Origin: an uncultured Nitrososphaerales archaeon
Lineage (GTDB): Archaea > Thermoproteota > Nitrososphaeria > Nitrososphaerales > Nitrososphaeraceae
Direction: 5' to 3'
DNA: 64,000 bases
NCBI GenBank assembly: GCA_963709405.1
Contig: CAVPXM010000063.1
Location: 32,001 to 96,000 of the forward strand
The first letter of the stretch is position 1; every line of letters begins with the position of its first letter. Made by a program: the position numbers and the translations under genes. Below, piece after piece: positions 6,121 through 54,804 of this stretch. The notes under the pieces are model-generated. The model was not told the DNA's origin. It saw only the letters and a list, made by a program, of their open reading frames with translations, and did no database searches.

Positions 6121-6133
6121 GTCGATGTATTAA

Positions 6134-6150
6134 GAACCTATCCGAAAAGT
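6134..6150 (+). mobile_element. Extra (outer) IS5-type terminal repeat GAACCTATCCGAAAAGT, preceded by TAA
   Basis: 16/17 identical to the inner left end (6307-6323) and 15/17 to the reverse complement of the right end (7247-7263). Confidence 0.8.
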
Positions 6151-6157
6151 AGTTGAG

Positions 6158-6306
6158 GTCGTAATTTAACTAATATAGGATTGAAATGATGACTAGGCGG
6201 TGTACACTCAACCCCGCCTAGATGGTTGTAATTTGATCAATATAGAATTGAAACTTAGCTGCTCCCGGATTCGAGTCACATACTCGCATTGTTGTAATTT
6301 GACTAA
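6158..6306 (+). CRISPR. Orphan CRISPR mini-array: two 30-nt repeats plus a truncated third repeat, two spacers (37 and 36 nt)
   Basis: Repeats 6158-6187 GTCGTAATTTAACTAATATAGGATTGAAAT and 6225-6254 GTTGTAATTTGATCAATATAGAATTGAAAC, half repeat 6291-6306 GTTGTAATTTGACTAA. The ATTGAAAC 3' end and spacer sizes are CRISPR-typical. No cas genes in the window. Confidence 0.8.
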
Positions 6307-7263
6307 GAACCCATCCGAAAAGTAGAGTTTTATTGAGTTACAAGCAAAGTGTGTTTGATCGATAAAGCTAAGCTGTACTGCAAGTATCTTCTGAGTTGTT
6401 GTATTGATATCAGAGGTTAGTGGAGTTGATTCATCTTACTGCATACCTGATGTTGTTTGGGACAGGATCATTGCATTGCTATCTCCATCAATACGAAGGA
6501 GGAAGAAAAAGGCTGGTCGTCCAAGAATGGATGACAGGAAGGCTATGAGTGCTATTTTCTACGTCCTACGTACAGGCTGTCAGTGGAATGCTCTACCAAG
6601 AAGTCTTGGTGCTTCAAGTACAGTACATGACAGATTCCAGGAATGGATAAAGGCTGGTGTTTTCAAGCGAATGTGGATCGATGGATTGACCATGTACGAT
6701 AAAAAAACTGGGATCGATTGGAAATGGCAGGCTATGGATGGAGTGATTACAAAAGCACCTCTTGGGGGAAAAAAGCACAGGACCAAATCCCTACCACAGA
6801 CAGAGCTAAATCAGGTACAAAACGCAGTATTCTAGTAGATGGTAAAGGTGTACCACTTGGTGTATCTGTAGATGGAGCTAACAGACATGACATGAAGATG
6901 ACCAAAGCAACACTGCAAAGCATAGTCATCTATAGACCTGAACCAACAATCAGATTAAAGCAGCACATGTGCATTGACAAAGGCTATGCCTTTCCTGAAG
7001 TATACGAATTACTAGAGAAGAGTATGGTTATACAATTCACATCAGATTAAGAGGTGAAGAAATAAGCAACAATAAAGAAGAAGAAGAAGGAATACCAAAA
7101 TACAGAGCTAGACGATGGGTTGTTGAAAGAACCCATTCTTGGATGAACAGGTTTAGACGATTGCTAATAAGATGGGAAAAGAGGATAGAGAACTATGTCG
7201 GAATGCTACATCTTGCTTGTGCTTGGATCACGTATAGAAGAGGTGGACTTTTCGCATAGGCTC
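6307..7263 (+). mobile_element. IS5-family insertion sequence
   Basis: Ends GAACCCATCCGAAAAGT and ACTTTTCGCATAGGCTC, flanked by TAA on both sides, with an IS5 transposase inside. Confidence 0.9.
6404..7259 (+). pseudogene. IS5-family transposase in three frames
   Basis: GRPRMDDRKAMSAIFYVLRTGCQWNALP, KRSILVDGKGVPL, DKGY, RWVVERTHSWMNRFRRL. A G5A6 slippery-like site lies near 6765, and there are further indels. Confidence 0.88.
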
Positions 7264-7715
7264 TAAATTAAGATAGATATCTCGAAGTAATTCTCACTTG
7301 GCCTTAGGTTTATACTCAGGATGACGATAATGGTACTAGCAATATGAATTCGTTATTCACGTGCATTCAGGAATTTTATCCCAGATATTCTTGAAGCCAG
7401 TTAGGCGCTAAGGTTTTACTCGAGGGCTAGTAATGACTAAAAGCTCTCCGGCCTATCAGGCTATTGCCGAACTTGAGAAAAAGAGTGTAACTGAGCAGAT
7501 CTCGTAGCATTGTGTTAACTACTTTTGTCATTTCTTATTTGATTCTTGCAGCTAGCACATCATCCATTTTCTCTATATTGTAGGTTGATCGACCGACTTT
7601 AGGAACACAAGAAGGTTTGATAATTCTGTGCCACTACTATAAGATGAAATATATTCCAACTTCTCACGATTAGATAAATCATACTACTTAATACTGAAAA
7701 ATGAACTACTCGACT

Positions 7716-49639: not shown

Positions 49640-52600
49640 TTAAGCACAACCTACTGCGGCTGCTGCAGCTGCTGCAGCTGCCGGCGAAGCTCCAGCTCGC
49701 TGTTGCTGCTGCTGCGGCTGCTGCAGGCTGTACCAGCTGCCGATGCTCCACTAGCTGCTGCGCTTGAGGCTGCTGACGCTGCGGCTGCTGCGAGCTGCTG
49801 GCGAAGCGCCTGCTACTGTAGTGGCTGCTGCGGCTGCCGCTGCGGCTGCTGCGGCTGTACCAGCTGCCGAGGCTCCACTAGCTGCTGCGCTTGAAGCGGC
49901 TCCTGCTGCTGCTGCTGGCTGGCTGCCTGGCGATCCTCCTGCTGCTGCTGCTGCGGGCTGCTGCCGGCTGCTGCAGCGGATGCCGTTGGTGAACCTCCAG
50001 CAGATGAAGCTGCCTGCTGCGGCTGCAGATGCCACGCCACCTATAGATGCTCCGGCTGCGACTGCGGATGAGGCTGCACTCGCCGCTGCCAATGCCGCTG
50101 ATGCACTACCACCTGCTGAAGATGCGGCTGCTGCGGCGGATGCTGCTGGTGGTACCACCAGCTGGCTGCGGCTGCTGCGGCTGCTGCTGCTGGCCGGCGA
50201 TGCTCCTGCTGCTGCTGCTGCTGCTGCGGCTGCTGAGGCAACTCCGGTTGGTGAGGCTCCATTAGCTGCTGCGCTTGAAGCTGCTGCTGCGGCTGCTGCT
50301 GCGGCTGCTGATGAAGCTCCTGCTGCAGAAGCGGCTGCTGCGGACGCTGCTGCGCAGGTACCACCTGGTGAAGCTCCAGCTGCTGCGGGCTGCTGCCGGC
50401 TGCTGCTGAAGCAACTCCGGATACAGATGCTCCACTAGCTGCTGCACTTGAGGCTGCTGACGCTGCGGCTGCTGCTGCCGATGTGGATGAGCCAGCCTTT
50501 TGCGCAGCAGACGATGCGGCTGAGGATGCTGCTGTGGCTGCTGCTGAAGAGATTGGGGATTTCAAAAGTGATGACGCTGGCGGCTGCTGCTGTTGCCGCT
50601 GTCGAAATTGAGGAGGATATAGTGGATGCGGCTGCCGATGAGGCTCCAGCTGCAGTTGCTGCTGCTGCGGCTGCTGTGGCAACTCCTGAGGCTGAGGCTC
50701 CACGAGCTGCTGCACTTGCTGCTGCTGCGGCTGCTGCGGCTCCGGCTCCTGGTGAAGCTCCAGCTGCACTTGCTGCTGCTGTCGGCTGCTGCGGCTGCTG
50801 CTCCACCAGGTGAAGCTCCTGCTGCTGCTGCGGCTGCTGCGACTGCTGCTGGCTGTTCCAGCTGCCGATGCTCCACTAGCTGCTGCGCTCGAAGCGGCTG
50901 ACGGCAGCTGCTGCGGCTGCCGCAGATGAAGATCCAGCTGAAGATGCGGCTGCTGCGGCTGCTGCAGAGGTGGCTCCACCTGCTGCGGCTGCTGCGGCTG
51001 CTGCGGCTGCTGCAGGTGAGGCTCCAGCTGCTGTTGCTGCTGAGGCTGCTGGAGATGCTGCACTTGCTGCTGAGGCTCCACTAGCTGCTGCACTTGCTGC
51101 TGCTGCGGCTGCTGCGGCTCCGGCTGCTGGTGAAGCTCCAGCTGGCACTTGCTGCTGCTGCGGCTGCTGGCGGCTGCTGCTCCACCAGGTGAAGCTCCGG
51201 CTGCTGTTGCGGCTGCTGCGGCTGCTGCGGCTGTTCCAGCTGCCGATGCTCCACTAGCTGCTCGCGCTCGAAGCAGCTGCTGAAGCTGGCCTGCGCTGGC
51301 TGCTGCTGAAGATCCAGCTGAAGATGCGGCTGCTGCGGCTGCTGCAGAGGTGGCTCCACCTGCTGCGGCTGCTGCCGGCTGCTGCGGCTGCTGCAGGTGA
51401 GGCTCCAGCTGCTGCTGCTGCTGAGGCTGCTGCAGATGCTGCACTTGCGGCTGAGGCTCCACTCAGCTGCTGCAGCTTGCTGCTGCTGCGGCTGCTGCGG
51501 CTCCGGCTGCTGGTGAAGCTCCAGCTGCACTTGCTGCTGCTGCGGCTGCTGCCGGCTGCTGCTCCACCAGGCGAAGCTCCAGCTGCAGTTGCGGCTGCCT
51601 GCTGGCTGCTGCGGCTGTTCCAGCTCGCCGATGCTCCACTAGCTGCTGCACTGCTGCGAGCTAGCTGCTGAAGCTGCTGCTGCGGCTGCTGCTGAAGATC
51701 CAGCTGAAGATGCGGCTGCTGCGGCTGCTGCAGAGGTGGCTCCACCTGCTGCGGCTGCTGCCGGCTGGCTGCGGCTGCTGCTGGTGAAGCTCCAGCTGCC
51801 TGCTGCTGCTGAGGCTGCTGGCAGATGCTGCACTTGCGGCTGAGGCTCCACTAGCTGCTGCACTTGCTGCTGCTGCGGCTGCTGCGGCTCCGGCTGCTGG
51901 TGAAGCTCCAGCTGCACTTGCTGCTGCTGCCGGCTGCTGCGGCTGCTGCTCCACCAGGTGAAGCTCCAGCTGCGGTTGCGCGCTGCTGCGGCTGCTGCGG
52001 CTGTTCCAGCTGCCGATGCTCCACTAGCTGCTGCGCTTCAAGCTAGCTGCTGGAAGCTGCTGCTGCGGCTGCTGCTGAAGATCCAGCTGAAGATGCGGCA
52101 GCTGCCGGCTGCTGCAGAGGTGGCTCCACCTGCTGCGGCTGCTGCGGCTGCTGCTGGCTGCTGCAGGTGAGGCTCCAGCTGCTGTTGCTGGCTGAGGCTG
52201 CTGCTGCGGCTGCTGCTGCGGCTCCATTATCAGCTGCGCTTGAAGCGGCTGCTGCGCGCTGCTGCTGCTGGCTGCGGTGAAGCTCCAGCTGCGGTGGCGG
52301 CAGTTGCGGCTGCTGCGGCTGCTGCTGCACTTGGAGTTGCACCCGAAGCAACTAGTGATGAGGCTGCCGATGCGCCTGCACTTGCTGGTAACAACCCTTG
52401 GCTAGTTGCTGTTTGTGCCGCTGAGGTTGCATTAGAAAGTTGTGCTGGGTCTAATTTCTGAGTTGATAAGGCACTCTGTAAGGTTGATTGGAACTTTTCA
52501 GTTGATATGTTTTTGGCTGGCTAAAGTTTGCCCTGGTGGTGCAAAGCCAGGTGCTGTTGCATTTTGTTCCGATGAGAGGGCGGCGGCATTTTGAATAGGT

Positions 52601-53469
52601 CCAGGTGCTGTTGCATTTTGGGGTTGAGCTCCAGTTGCATTTTCAATTGGTGCAAAGCCAGGTGCTGTTGCATTTTGGGGTTGAGCTCCAGTTGCATTTT
52701 CAATTGGTGCAAAGCCAGGTGCTGTTGCATTTTGGGGTTGAGCTCCAGTTGCATTTTCAGGAGCAGCCAATTGTTGTGGGAAGTTTGTTGCTGGTCCGGT
52801 TAGGTTTTCAGGACTGGTGGCTGCTCTGGTGCTGGTGGTTGTTCCGGAAGGGTTTCAGGCTCCGGTTGGTTTTCAGGAGCGTGTCTGCTCTAGTTGCGCT
52901 GGTGGTTGTTCTGGAAGACCAGTTGCTGGTCCGGTTAGGTTTTCAGGAGGTGTCTGCTCTGTCGCTGGTGGTTGTTCTGGAAGACCAGTTGTTGGTCCGG
53001 TTAGGTTTTCAGGAGGTGTCTGCTCTGTCGCTGGTGGTTGTTCTGGTTGGCTAGTGTTATTTTCAGTTGAGGGTTGTCCGCTATTACCAGTTGAGGGTTG
53101 TTCGTTATTTTGAGTTGAGGGTTGAGGAATGATCGTGGGCAATGATCCTGAAGGGTTGTTTTCAGTTGACGGTTGTCCGCTATTATCAGTTGAGGGTTGT
53201 CCGCTATTATCAGTTGAGGGTTGTTGTGAAGGATTATTTCCGTTCGTATTATCATTAGTCGAGGAGTCCTGAGATCCGGAACTTCCACCTGAATCTTTCT
53301 TACTCTTTGAGAAAGATACTTGATATGTACTCAGAGGAAGTATCCCTGACAGAACGACGATTGAAACTATTACGACCGCAAATAACTGCTTATTTTTGGA
53401 TCTAAATGGATCGTAAAACACAGTTCCAGGTAGGCACCGTAATATAAATATGATTCGCCAATTCTGCAA
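49640..53469 (-). CDS. Large secreted or surface low-complexity protein (Pro/Thr repeats then a poly-Ala/Gly-Ala-Ser-Pro domain); reading frame broken by many indels
   Basis: N-terminal hydrophobic segment, then PSTDNSGQ, PEQPPATEQTPPENLTG and PQNATAPGFAPIENATGAQ repeats, then STEKFQSTLQSALS... leading into (A)nGASP repeats. Probable stop near 49640. Confidence 0.7.
49650..52330. repeat. GCT/GCG trinucleotide-rich array with a ~383-bp higher-order unit
   Basis: The anchor GATCCAGCTGAAGATGCGGC recurs at 50931, 51311, 51697 and 52080. Confidence 0.9.
52540..53225. repeat. Coding tandem repeats of 57, 63 and 24 bp
   Basis: 57-bp unit at 52601/52658/52715; GGTCCGGTTAGGTTTTCAGG units; CAGTTGAGGGTTGTCCGCTATTA units. 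Confidence 0.9.
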
Positions 53470-54003
53470 TACACTAGGATGCTAAATTAGACGCGTTGGT
53501 TTCGAAATTAGATTTATAATAACTGTCGTAATAGCACTAAAATATACAGGAATACTTACAATACCCGAACAAATGCCCCTAGGCACTGTCTTTTATGCAT
53601 GAGTTTAACATAACAGCAGTGACATGCCGAACGTATCGCAAATTAATCATCGCATCCTGCCTTTCTCGGAATAAACTATATTGTTTAGGGTTACGATGCG
53701 AATCATTCACGTACTAATTCCAATTCCAATTATCGCGACAAAAATCATATCTTCGTCTACTTTTTTGAAATGCAAATGCTTGGACGTGGCTACCAATTTA
53801 TTGTATGACCTATGCGGCGAATGCCAACGTTCAATCAATATTATCTCCACTTTGACAAGTTGGAATGAAATGTGCTCGAAAAGGGTTTTTGCATGTTAAT
53901 GCAGGTATACGCGGTCTTTATGACTTGCAAATATTCTTACCTACAGCTCGTTGACGATTGCCTTCCACACGTTGATAATCCAGGATTCTGAAAGGCCACG
54001 CCT

Positions 54004-54095: not shown

Positions 54096-54436
54096 TGTAG
54101 CTAGACGCTATTAATGCCTATATCCACTTTACAGATTGTGCAACATCATTGCCATTATCCAGTAGAGTGGCACTAAGAACGAGTACTGTGTTAGCCTTCT
54201 CTCCACACCAGTTAACGTAGACGGAATGTATACGTTTAGTGATTTTACCTCTATGATCTCTATATAACTTGGATACACTTTTACGTAACGGTTATGCATT
54301 GGGTTAGTTATGTGAAAAATCGGAGTATGGAAGTGTACGAAGGCCTACTCGCTTCAAATATACAAGGAAAAAGACCAAAAGTGTAATTAGATGCGAATAA
54401 TTGTCAATTTACTAGATGTAAACCAACGGACAAAGA

Positions 54437-54629
54437 AACTCTCGAATAGGTTCTTAGGTCAAATTACAACGGTTCACCCTCGATATCTAAACATTACTTC
54501 TTTCAGGATGTTTCAATCCGATATTAGTCAAATTACAATACAACAACACACACACCCACAATCTCAGATAGGAGTGTTTCAATCCTATGTTAGTCAATTT
54601 ACAACCTCAACCACTTTTAGGATCGGTTC
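54437..54629 (-). CRISPR. Second orphan mini-array (same 30-nt repeat family as 6158-6306) bracketed by IS5-type ends; spacers 36 and 39 nt
   Basis: On the - strand: GAACCGATCCTAAAAGT, GGTTGAG, GTTGTAAATTGACTAACATAGGATTGAAAC (54576-54605), spacer, ATTGTAATTTGACTAATATCGGATTGAAAC (54510-54539), spacer, GTTGTAATTTGACCTAA, GAACCTATTCGAGAGTT. Confidence 0.8.
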
Positions 54630-54804
54630 CTAGATGGTCATGCATATAGTATTGTCTGCAAGTGTTTTGACTGCTTCAACTATGCGTGCCTTTACCTAAG
54701 CAACGAGGCCTATACACTTTGTCTTTCTTGCTAAATGTCTATACATGACTTCATAAGAAGCAGAAAGAAGGAATCTACATACCTAATTGCAGCCATTCTC
54801 AAAT

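Follow-up and report, generated by a model that had tools for sequence, protein, structure and literature searches.

A CRISPR-type mini-array between insertion sequence stubs in a soil archaeon: probable remnant of a non-autonomous composite element

The 64-kb stretch of DNA analysed here (the window) belongs to the assembly of a soil ammonia-oxidising archaeon (4.83 Mb in 100 contigs, 91% complete, 3.7% contamination) and carries two loci in which CRISPR-type repeats and spacers adjoin the ends of IS5-family insertion sequences (Table 1). At the locus that concerns us most, on the minus strand, two repeats, two spacers and a truncated third repeat stand between two IS stubs of 24 and 21 nt; the other, 48 kb away on the plus strand, is referred to as the first locus. 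Four matches to the repeat (with three mismatches or fewer) and two to a 22-nt IS-end pattern were found in the window, against none of either in 100 shuffled versions of it, and a chance origin of these repeats and ends is excluded.

Table 1. Coordinates of the array and IS features at the two loci of the window.
Feature	Position	Strand	Remarks
Flanking triplet	54630-54632	-	Reads TAG; putative TNA target triplet beside the left IS end
24-nt stub of the A end of a type-2 IS5-family element	54606-54629	-	Includes the former 7-nt "linker"
CRISPR-type repeat 1, 30 nt	54576-54605	-	2 mismatches to the 30-nt consensus
Spacer type A, 36 nt	54540-54575	-	Spacer comparison across 15 loci
CRISPR-type repeat 2, 30 nt	54510-54539	-	2 mismatches to the 30-nt consensus
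Spacer type C, 39 nt	54471-54509	-	One inserted base relative to other C copies
Truncated terminal repeat	54457-54470	-	First 13 nt plus one extra base
TAA (54454-54456), then ~20-nt stub of the inner B end of the type-2 IS	54434-54456	-	Rest of the IS deleted
TAA, then 24-nt A-end stub	6131-6157	+	End-pattern and junction matches
Repeat, spacer B (6188-6224, hairpin), repeat, spacer G (6255-6290), 13-nt truncated repeat	6158-6303	+	Repeat and spacer comparison
TAA, type-1 IS5-family element (6307-7263) with frame-broken transposase, TAA	6304-7266	+	

The 19-nt core of the A-end stub at 54606-54629 differs at three positions from the copy at 6134-6152, and an earlier count of 15 matches in 17 between these ends, made again by eye, holds; the 32-nt pattern that spans the junction of IS end and first repeat is present with four mismatches. 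A preliminary description of this DNA had placed a separate 7-nt linker at that junction, which turns out to be nucleotides 18-24 of the IS end itself. The same description was right in matching each of the two full repeats to the consensus at 28 of 30 positions and in reading a third repeat cut at a TAA and followed by an IS-like end. Its count of 13 of 17 positions shared by this end and the first one is correct, and a better match (19/21, or 90%, at 54434-54454) is to the type-2 IS copies of contigs C21 and C40, at their B end. It had also reported neither a transposase nor a clear partner end, and we likewise found no transposase, ORF or inverted partner end at 54434-54632, where blastn of the 3.4 kb downstream returned only the 21-nt stub; the DDE transposase between terminal inverted repeats is thus absent, with only the two stubs in its place. 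Because the IS is gone and the right boundary is lost, the TAG beside the left end has no partner triplet with which a target duplication could be checked. The two ends point in the same direction, and not towards each other within a few hundred bp as in a MITE. As to the array itself, direct repeats of 30 nt alternate regularly with spacers of 36-39 nt; the spacers are not unique to the locus, and no leader precedes them, the 24 nt 5' of the first repeat being an IS end and the flank beyond it differing at every locus of the family described below.

The genome has 37 repeats at 15 loci on 10 contigs, numbers that are lower bounds and may include copies from co-assembled strains because this is a 100-contig genome with 3.7% contamination. 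No long array of the repeat was found in the 4.83-Mb assembly. The flanks are unique and different at each of the 15 loci, 11 of which share the junction between IS end and first repeat and nine the junction of truncated repeat, TAA and IS end (the present locus and eight others, with a 13-nt stump), so that the dispersed family suspected earlier is real. Both loci of the window lie just downstream of a same-strand gene; as a rule, placement 3' of co-oriented genes was rejected, since orientation relative to the neighbours is mixed across the 15 loci.

All the spacers of these cassettes fall into seven recurring types, A to G, whose relative order (A, B, then G/E/F, then C or D) is without conflict in the 15 loci. 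Type B is present in 11 loci, D in five, E in three and in a hybrid, F in three, and G in one and in two partial copies, while A occurs in six (the present locus, C30, C50, C55b, C63:258k and C97) and C in five (the present locus, C21a, C21b, C40 and C55b). Each copy holds one to four units, drawn from any part of the order. The two loci of the window have no spacer in common, the first having B and G and the present one A and C; the earlier statement that their spacers are entirely different is therefore correct for this pair and fails genome-wide, where A and C recur at other loci. The fixed order of seven shared types indicates that the copies are nested subsets of one ancestral array from which units have been lost, and the different spacers of the loci are what remains of a single common set and do not record new immune memories. 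This order, together with the failure to find cas1, cas2 or cas4 (no match to Cas1, Cas2 or Cas4 profiles in the 91%-complete assembly), speaks against the suggestion that spacer content is exchanged or acquired. It had been envisaged that only two copies might exist, both from the fragmentation of one ancestral array: the copies are far more than two, and they do all trace to one ancestral array. A complete ancestral or "master" array was not found in the assembly.

The repeat has relatives in genuine CRISPR settings. Contig C46, of which the first ~960 bp look chimeric, so that the N-terminal half of Cas6 is missing, carries a cas6-array-cas8-cas7-cas5-cas3 locus with a five-repeat array between cas6 and cas8; the cassette repeat agrees with this cas-linked repeat at 23 of 30 positions, among them the 14 that precede its final base, and the unit size (30 plus 36-39 nt) is the same. 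Agreement rises to 26/30 with a nine-repeat array in another genus and to 30/30 with the repeat of a metagenome mini-array that has two different spacers and no IS end, and in genome G001 related repeats adjoin the 3' end of a cas6. Because degeneration at this same point is also seen in the final repeat of related arrays without any IS (L014, G001), the apparent cut in the third repeat may simply mark the natural last repeat of an array.

The IS component belongs to an IS5-family variant of ~985 bp (type 2) with six copies, all pseudogenised: their reading frames are in pieces of 45-129 aa, with a break recurring at one point in five of the six. The 24 nt preceding the first repeat correspond to the outer end of this element with one or two mismatches, and they also match native IS ends in two genomes of the same genus (G004 and G006), in which they lead into IS sequence and not into a repeat. 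The ends of the type-1 IS of the same genome differ from those of type 2 by one base in 19, and this type is represented by one copy with an uninterrupted frame and by several that are split over two frames; the IS copy of C58 encodes an open 280-aa DDE transposase (Pfam DUF4096, 8e-22; DDE_Tnp_1, 2e-19). The group makes a 3-bp TNA duplication: of the 37 full elements whose end pairs were listed, 33 have the same triplet on both sides. Among the 132 IS-end cores of the assembly, directly oriented pairs spaced by less than 700 nt are found at array cassettes (5/5 pairs) and nowhere else. Two 440-bp MITEs of this genome have the same IS ends and carry no repeats.

All six type-2 copies adjoin an array, as do one of the eight full copies and one partial copy of type 1 and none of the other size classes. 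On the far side of the attached IS, each locus has unique DNA of its own, which is never the rest of the repeat or array. In the IS tree, the copies of C50 and C97 form a pair (support 100/99) and have identical A-B-D arrays, and those of C21 and C40 pair with 93/94 support and have arrays that both end in spacer C. Three composites could be checked for their outer boundaries (C55b, C49 and C63:38k, the last being window 6131-7266), and in each an inverted pair of IS ends brackets the passenger with the same outer triplet on both sides, a match that carries little weight because TAA is the commonest target and the inner-junction triplet is the same; the present locus, having lost its IS, does not have this arrangement. 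Repeats attached to the type-2 IS diverge from their consensus by 3.3% (20/600) and the dead IS itself by 3.3% (177/5380), the mismatches of the repeats being evenly spread (27 in the first half, 25 in the second) and their last base changed in 8 of 37. The cassette thus evolves as if unconstrained.

Since the supposed linker is part of the IS end, all six type-2 copies stand beside arrays, and the IS tree agrees with array content, we consider it probable that the locus at 54434-54632 represents a non-autonomous composite transposable element, old and decayed, that carries a fragment of one ancestral array. That the family is non-autonomous had been proposed before and is borne out by the attached IS copies, which are pseudogenes with shared frame breaks. 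In the complete element, an inward 24-nt A-end stub is followed by a type I-B-like array fragment, a 13-nt terminal repeat, TAA and a whole pseudogenised type-2 IS, whose own A end is outermost and inverted, so that the outer A ends form an inverted pair. A related transposase could use this pair, with the array fragment travelling as a passenger and the type-1 IS, acting in trans, as the likeliest mobiliser. The passenger would go back to a single ancestral array of seven or more spacer types, its last-repeat stump at the IS side and the IS-end stub standing at the leader's place. After each transposition, recombination between identical 30-nt repeats would have removed units, leaving one to four of them in the ancestral order. 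At the present locus, the units between A and C and nearly the whole IS would have been lost, and the remnant would be immobile. One pair of copies does not fit this scheme: C50 and C97 are the youngest (98.4% identical IS) and are without the A-end stub, their arrays beginning at the exact first base of the repeat beside unrelated flanks, and the copying of these arrays is unexplained by the composite-element model.

Spacer B also sits uneasily with simple decay. At the first locus it folds into a hairpin (-17.4 kcal/mol, z -3.1), and type B in general is a GC-rich hairpin whose 12-13-nt loop is ~50% different between copies, the rest differing by 10% or less. This hypervariability is not predicted by plain neutral decay and needs either an ancestral block of many B variants or local hypermutation. 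Other explanations were rejected: the loop is not a record of the insertion site (the longest word shared with its own 150-nt flank averaged 5.3, as with other loci's flanks, also 5.3), nor does it pair with a genomic target (longest exact matches of 10-14 nt, against shuffled means of 11.4-12.5), and a diversity-generating retroelement is contradicted by the lack of any reverse-transcriptase match and of a B template copy outside the cassettes. A search of Rfam returned no family at the first locus and, at the present one, no more than two rows at chance level (E about 0.5).

The search for targets and relatives was extended beyond the assembly. Spacers A and C to G were compared with GenBank phages, the genome itself and the genomes of its family, and no convincing protospacer was found in GenBank phages, 200 family genomes, the own genome or viral contigs (the latter for type-B arms only); nor were template copies or matches of the cassette spacers present in the host genome outside the cassettes. 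We attribute to chance the one phage match obtained (Bacillus phage SPR, 79.6% over 53 nt, E 0.03); two further phage searches gave none. Apart from IS ends and repeats, the cassette was not found in 40 relatives and 200 family genomes; five weak rows inside the spacer part among the latter (G022, G023, G144, G167 and G169; E 0.002-0.009) were also taken for chance. The left-junction pattern has no match in the genome and metagenome collections, and the repeat pattern has none in the genome and viral collections and occurs on one metagenome contig. Four soil or peat runs from three studies contain pieces of A, B, E, F and G and the type-2 junction, with no other type among the matches listed. 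No empty site could be defined, since same-genus genomes align over the upstream gene only (68-76% identity) and not past its stop. In an oligo-dT RNA library (X20), cassette contigs have about ten times the depth of the neighbouring gene; the same excess, of 10-20-fold, is present in the DNA runs, and transcription cannot be read from contigs. One contig of this library (record 21) joins the flank of the present locus to A and then to a B unit, which would fit a loss of B at 54434-54632; being a 334-nt contig through repeats, it may be a mis-join.

Processing of cassette crRNAs by the genome's Cas6 and their use by a Cas8-Cas7-Cas5-Cas3 effector are possible, given that the repeats of the cassettes and of the cas-linked array agree in the 14 bases ahead of the final one. 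The cassettes could have had the same history and yet have been kept as working, transposon-borne crRNA genes, Cas6-processed and serving an adaptation-less type I-B effector with multi-copy guides against rival mobile elements, for the host or for the element, or acting as regulators. The cas locus of C46 and the kinship of its repeat are compatible with such a role, two full repeats have been kept even in the old, IS-less copy studied here, and no spacer matches the own genome outside the cassettes, so that no self-targeting cost would arise. Moreover, the use of host Cas proteins has been described for viral mini-arrays and for stand-alone arrays that integrated elements of this archaeal group carry (PMC8616872, PMC6563490). 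We nevertheless regard this role as rather unlikely, because the rate of divergence in the repeats equals that of the dead IS, conservation in the repeat-derived tag region is no higher than elsewhere in the repeat and its last base varies as noted, the searches of GenBank phages, 200 family genomes and viral contigs (type-B arms) gave no protospacer, no leader or evident promoter is carried and orientation to neighbouring genes is mixed. A spacer that forms a stable hairpin, as B does, is also expected to make a poor crRNA guide. An elaborate version, in which the crRNA genes are spread by the non-autonomous IS5-family element for a type I-B effector without adaptation genes and the near-universal B unit is not an ordinary spacer and is instead a deliberately diversified or hypermutating module, seems to us improbable.

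In another reading, which the preliminary description had put forward in the form of IS ends repeatedly cutting arrays and mobilising the two newest spacers, separate pre-existing arrays were hit again and again by IS copies at the repeat's TAA, leaving two or so units. The preference of the IS group for TNA would suit it, as would the C that by eye just precedes the triplet in several full copies, a context the repeat also offers, and the finding of two IS types, in two orientations, at the same truncated-repeat position. It is mostly unsupported all the same, and we hold it to be very improbable: the remainder of the repeat or array is never found across the IS, the units come in numbers from one to four and from any part of the order, the spacers common to the loci keep a fixed order that would be unexpected for independent arrays, the left junction is identical at 11 loci, and arrays without IS degenerate at the same place. 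Even less credible is the view that the cassettes are not derived from CRISPR and form a mosaic interspersed repeat, like bacterial BIME/REP mosaics, that just happens to have a period of 67 nt. A few "spacer" modules reused in many loci, one of them a conserved hairpin, and the lack of a long array would be expected of such a mosaic; the 30/30 identity to the repeat of a metagenome mini-array with unique spacers, the close kin in cas-adjacent and long arrays of this genome and other genera of the family, and the unit sizes of a cas-linked array would not. That the locus arose from short-read mis-joins across IS ends and repeats is, in our judgement, the remotest of all. An assembly of 100 contigs with 132 IS-end cores invites such errors, and the start of C46 may be one; yet the present locus lies 54 kb inside a 260-kb contig between unique flanks, the flanks differ at all fifteen loci, and both junctions are covered by soil-metagenome contigs of run X3 (record 26, spanning 54475-54684 with no other letters, and record 24, spanning 54186-54490), an independent support that is weak because X3 may be the source sample.

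If the composite element is the right explanation, these cassettes show a route by which array DNA can become dispersed, multi-copy and detached from cas genes, namely capture by an IS and amplification as its passenger. Array predictors and spacer-based linkage of hosts and viruses would count the 15 loci as independent arrays and the seven types as about 30 spacers, and spacer differences between such loci could be mistaken for acquisition when they are deletions. Should the cassettes be expressed, they would be the first case found of an IS-type element spreading guide RNAs. The hypervariable loop of the B hairpin is a separate small puzzle that can be tested with population data.

Composite transposons and ISs with a passenger have inverted ends that bracket foreign DNA, can be mobilised in trans and decay to immobile relics. 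The cassettes resemble them in the inverted IS ends around a passenger, the 3-bp TNA duplication, the mobilisation in trans that we propose and the immobile relics; they differ in that the passenger is non-coding CRISPR array DNA, that one IS copy is down to 24 nt, and that a third, inner end stands in direct orientation beside the truncated repeat. Like MITEs, they are short, non-coding, multi-copy and derived from an IS, with a transposase that would be supplied in trans; unlike MITEs, the ends flanking the array are direct and the true inverted partner lies ~1 kb away, on the far side of the IS.

A search of full-text literature, which excluded supplementary files and most subscription papers and is no proof of absence, found no IS-borne multi-copy mini-array, and returned arrays on viruses, plasmids, integrative-conjugative elements (ICEs) and Tn7-like elements. 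The orphan mini-arrays of viruses and the stand-alone arrays that integrative-conjugative elements of Nitrosocaldus carry (PMC8616872, PMC6563490) are similar in having one to four spacers, repeats like those of the host cas system, no cas genes of their own, a location inside a mobile element and possibly a truncated last repeat. The carrier here is, in contrast, a ~1.3-kb IS derivative and not a virus, plasmid or ICE (PMC8616872, PMC6563490), the same few spacers occupy up to 11 loci of one genome, and no target, sign of spacer turnover or adaptation gene was found in the searches and the assembly described above. A Tn7-like family that targets CRISPR arrays offers another parallel, since its TnsD-type targeting leads it to a fixed position within the spacer regions of resident arrays (PMC11837452), so that in both cases a transposable element is joined to array DNA at a fixed position. 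Where the Tn7-like elements go to an array (PMC11837452), however, here the array departs together with an IS5-family element that sits at the last repeat's TAA.

The studied cassette (window 54434-54632, - strand) is laid out in the table below. Four repeats in the window match the 30-nt consensus with up to three mismatches, against none in 100 shuffles, and a 19-nt core of the IS end is present, with up to four mismatches, at four window sites (6134, 6307, 7245 and 54611, the last two on the - strand). The first window locus (locus 1, 6131-7266, + strand) has the same layout followed by a complete IS with a broken frame. Recounting by eye confirmed the match counts given for the studied locus in a preliminary description, including that for its second IS-like end, but this end corresponds better to the opposite end of a variant IS, matched over 21 nt at 90%. 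No further IS sequence was found in the 3.4 kb downstream of this stub. Also downstream, window 51850-53470 holds overlapping low-complexity frames on both strands, with Ala/Pro/Gln-rich and Pro/Ser/Thr-rich tandem repeats, and an ORF of 198 aa in which short motifs recur.

Features of the studied locus and reference positions of the seven spacer types
Feature	Position	Strand	Remarks
Flanking triplet	window 54630-54632	-	adjoins IS end; read from sequence
IS end, 24 nt	window 54629-54606	-	read from sequence
Repeat 1, 30 nt	window 54605-54576	-	2 mismatches to 30-nt consensus
Spacer, 36 nt (type A)	window 54540-54575	-	between repeats 1 and 2; reference for type A, 6 loci
Repeat 2, 30 nt	window 54539-54510	-	2 mismatches to 30-nt consensus
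Spacer, 39 nt (type C)	window 54471-54509	-	after repeat 2; reference for type C, 5 loci
Third repeat, initial 13 nt and 1 extra base	window 54470-54457	-	then TAA
IS-end-like stretch, ~20 nt	down to window 54434	-	after TAA; read from sequence
Spacer type B	window 6188-6224	+	11 loci, 12 units
Spacer type D	C97:2932-2968		5 loci
Spacer type E	C21:283447-283483		3 loci and a hybrid
Spacer type F	C40:9050-9087		3 loci
Spacer type G	window 6255-6290		1 locus and two partial

A scan of the whole assembly (up to six mismatches) detected 37 copies of the repeat at 15 loci on 10 contigs, with one to four full repeats per locus and no long array of this repeat. The junction between IS end and first repeat is found at 11 of the 15 loci (10 by pattern scan, plus contig C59), and that between truncated repeat, TAA and IS end at nine (eight by pattern scan, plus the studied locus, counted despite one inserted base). 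The two window loci had been said to carry entirely different spacers; they do share none (B and G versus A and C), but both draw on a common set, the spacers of the 15 loci falling into seven types, A to G, rather than being unique. All loci follow one relative order, A before B, B before G, E or F, and these before C or D, with conflicts at none of the 15. The differences between loci are best read as unit loss from one ancestral array, which, from what is generally known of arrays, would have occurred by recombination between identical repeats. In contig pieces from four soil and peat runs of three studies, five types (A, B, E, F and G) were seen together with the IS junction; the matches listed for these runs include no further type. 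Outside the window, at C63:192397-192433, a cassette repeat contains a 7-nt insertion, which gives it a perfect internal palindrome of 10 nt, and in another genus of the family (genome G020) a solitary related repeat lies inside a sequence duplicated on two contigs, C30 and C21 (L039/L040).

The genome contains 132 copies of a 15-nt core of the IS end and 37 inward-facing end pairs, with size classes of approximately 890, 941, 972 and 985 bp and two elements of 440 bp; the four larger classes have common termini and TNA duplications. Identical flanking triplets (TAA or TTA) are found at 33 of the 37 elements and amount to a 3-bp TNA duplication. Type 1, the 941-bp class, has eight full copies approximately 91% identical to the window copy. 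The copy on C58 has an open frame of 280 aa, whose matches to DUF4096 (8e-22) and DDE_Tnp_1 (2e-19) assign the element to the IS4/IS5 group; some other copies have two overlapping frames. The 972-bp class looks recently active; in at least ten of its copies the longest frame is the same, at 184 aa. Type 2, the 985-bp class, shows 81-83% identity to type 1 and 92.6-98.4% among its own six members, all of which adjoin an array and have a reading frame split into pieces of 45-129 aa. One break point is common to five of the six, which shows that type 2 multiplied in an already defective form.

The preliminary description had set a 7-nt linker apart as a separate component; it is part of an IS terminus of 24 nt. 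This terminus, directly before the first repeat, differs by one or two mismatches from the outer end of the type-2 copies. In G004 and G006, two genomes of the same genus, this end of 24-26 nt runs into IS sequence without a repeat. In G004 (contig C1), the alignment to the cassette continues past the junction for 19 nt of the repeat (85% overall). The IS thus resembles the start of the repeat immediately internal to its end, a similarity that may have guided the fusion of end and array. At the type-2 loci the inner (B) end of the IS adjoins the truncated repeat and the A end lies outermost, inverted, while on the opposite side of the array the 24-nt stub is an A end pointing inwards. The whole unit thus consists of A end, array, B end, IS and inverted A end.

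It had also been proposed that IS5 ends cut arrays again and again at the TAA of a repeat. In that case the repeat should continue beyond the IS, and it never does: the DNA there is different at every locus, so that the IS did not simply drop into a resident array at each site. Our observations indicate instead that array and IS moved together, because all type-2 copies have arrays and the IS tree is consistent with array content: the C50 and C97 copies pair (100/99 support) and have identical A-B-D arrays, and the C21 and C40 copies pair (93/94 support) and have arrays that end in C. Direct-oriented end pairs within 700 nt are confined to cassettes (5/5). At the three composites that could be checked, the same triplet stands on both outer sides, a weak sign, as these IS usually target TAA and the inner triplet is no different. 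Locus 1 and C59 have a type-1 IS at the same position, in the orientation opposite to type 2, and private variants beside spacer B in common. They look like a second, related composite, which another insertion, or recombination between IS ends, may have produced. One case does not fit the composite model, namely the copying of the stub-less arrays of C50 (68551-68715) and C97 (2767-2931). This is the most similar cassette and IS pair (98.4% identical IS) and the youngest; the arrays have no A-end stub and begin at the first base of the repeat, beside unrelated flanks.

Variation in spacer B admits two explanations. This spacer is a hairpin with 8-bp GC-rich arms (-17.4 kcal/mol, z -3.1 versus shuffles). 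An alignment of the 12 B units and adjacent repeats gave a mean pairwise difference of approximately 0.5 for the 12 loop columns; elsewhere it was mostly 0.1 or less, with the exception of six polymorphic columns (0.3-0.6). The loop hardly varies in length (12-13 nt). The loops had no match in their own flanks or the rest of the genome beyond shuffled controls, and no reverse transcriptase match was found. Two tandem B units on C30 (63786-63822 and 63853-63889) have, by eye, the same arms and flanking repeats except at one repeat position, and loops that differ at eight. We favour an ancestral array that would have held a block of several B spacers, possibly taken up from variants of a single palindromic target at a time when adaptation genes were still present. 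Such a block would collapse easily by recombination, each copy keeping one random variant. Local hypermutation of the loop would be the alternative source of such variation.

The third repeat was described as cut at its TAA. This apparent cut may be the last repeat in the degenerate form natural to this repeat family, with the IS placed at its TAA, since similar endings occur elsewhere. A metagenome contig (L014, 1900-2080) has the identical repeat twice, with two other spacers and a third repeat matching over only 16 nt, in an orphan mini-array that lacks an IS end and is flanked by ordinary chromosomal genes of a related organism; in the cas6-adjacent array of the same-genus genome G001, the last repeat degenerates at the same place. 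A natural last repeat would also fix the polarity, placing the IS on the trailer side and the stub of the A end at the former leader position. The studied locus is the most diverged copy: it has four mismatches in the 32-nt left junction pattern, its spacer A is 93% identical to the common form over 30 nt and its spacer C, with one inserted base, 97% over 35 nt. The IS is gone except for 21 nt, and as both remaining ends point in the same direction the transposase cannot move the locus, which is a relic. In X20, a sequencing run of an oligo-dT RNA library, a contig from a related strain joins the same flank to an A and then a B unit; it is short and possibly mis-joined, and would fit later loss of units at the studied locus.

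The window sits in a 260-kb contig of an assembly of 4.83 Mb in 100 contigs (37% G+C, 91% completeness, 3.7% contamination), and the stretch has its closest counterparts in metagenomes from soil and peat. The presence of archaeal genes for 16S rRNA and for amoA (E 5e-118), the latter on a contig also bearing two cassettes, identifies an ammonia-oxidising archaeon. One cas locus was detected in its assembly, on contig C46 (L016, 907-7570), in the order cas6 (3' part), a five-repeat array (1440-1734), cas8-like, cas7, a cas5 candidate and cas3. This array, which separates cas6 from the effector genes, has five identical 30-nt repeats and four unique spacers. The large subunit is of the CXXC type, cas7 is DevR/Csa2, cas3 has HD and helicase domains, and the cas5 candidate is a 187-aa ORF at the position expected for cas5. 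No adaptation genes follow cas3, and profiles for Cas1, Cas2, Cas4 and RAMPs had no match in the assembly, an absence that is unproven at 91% completeness. Positions 1-960 of C46 are very G+C-rich, unlike the remaining contig, and stand in place of the 5' half of cas6; these first ~960 bp look like a chimeric contig end or a contaminant join.

In the repeats that adjoin type-2 IS, 20 of 600 positions depart from consensus (3.3%), compared with 177 of 5380 (3.3%) in the dead IS and 52 of 1110 (4.7%) in all 37 repeats. Mismatches are evenly spread (27 in the first half, 25 in the second), and the last base, which we take to be the final base of the crRNA 5' tag after Cas6 processing, is altered in eight of the 37. 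Spacer searches had been suggested in the host genome, where no match was found outside the cassettes, and in soil viromes, for which the type-B arms were sought and not found in viral contigs; comparison with GenBank phages and with 200 genomes of the family gave no convincing match. Judged by this divergence, the spread of mismatches and the absence of spacer matches, the cassettes offer no positive sign of function. Cas6 might still process their repeats; 23 of 30 positions, including the 14 bases before the last, are common to the cassette and cas-linked repeats.

Earlier reports describe viral mini-arrays of one or two spacers that use host Cas proteins (PMC8616872), Tn7-like elements that target CRISPR arrays (PMC11837452) and, in the same archaeal group, integrated elements with type I-B systems or stand-alone arrays, as well as 244 IS of 13 families (PMC6563490). 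Our full-text literature searches returned no IS-borne, multi-copy mini-array with shared spacers, which is not proof of absence. Like the known orphan mini-arrays, the present cassettes are arrays borne on mobile elements; they differ in that the carrier is a non-autonomous IS5-family composite and in that the array was probably amplified as a passenger.
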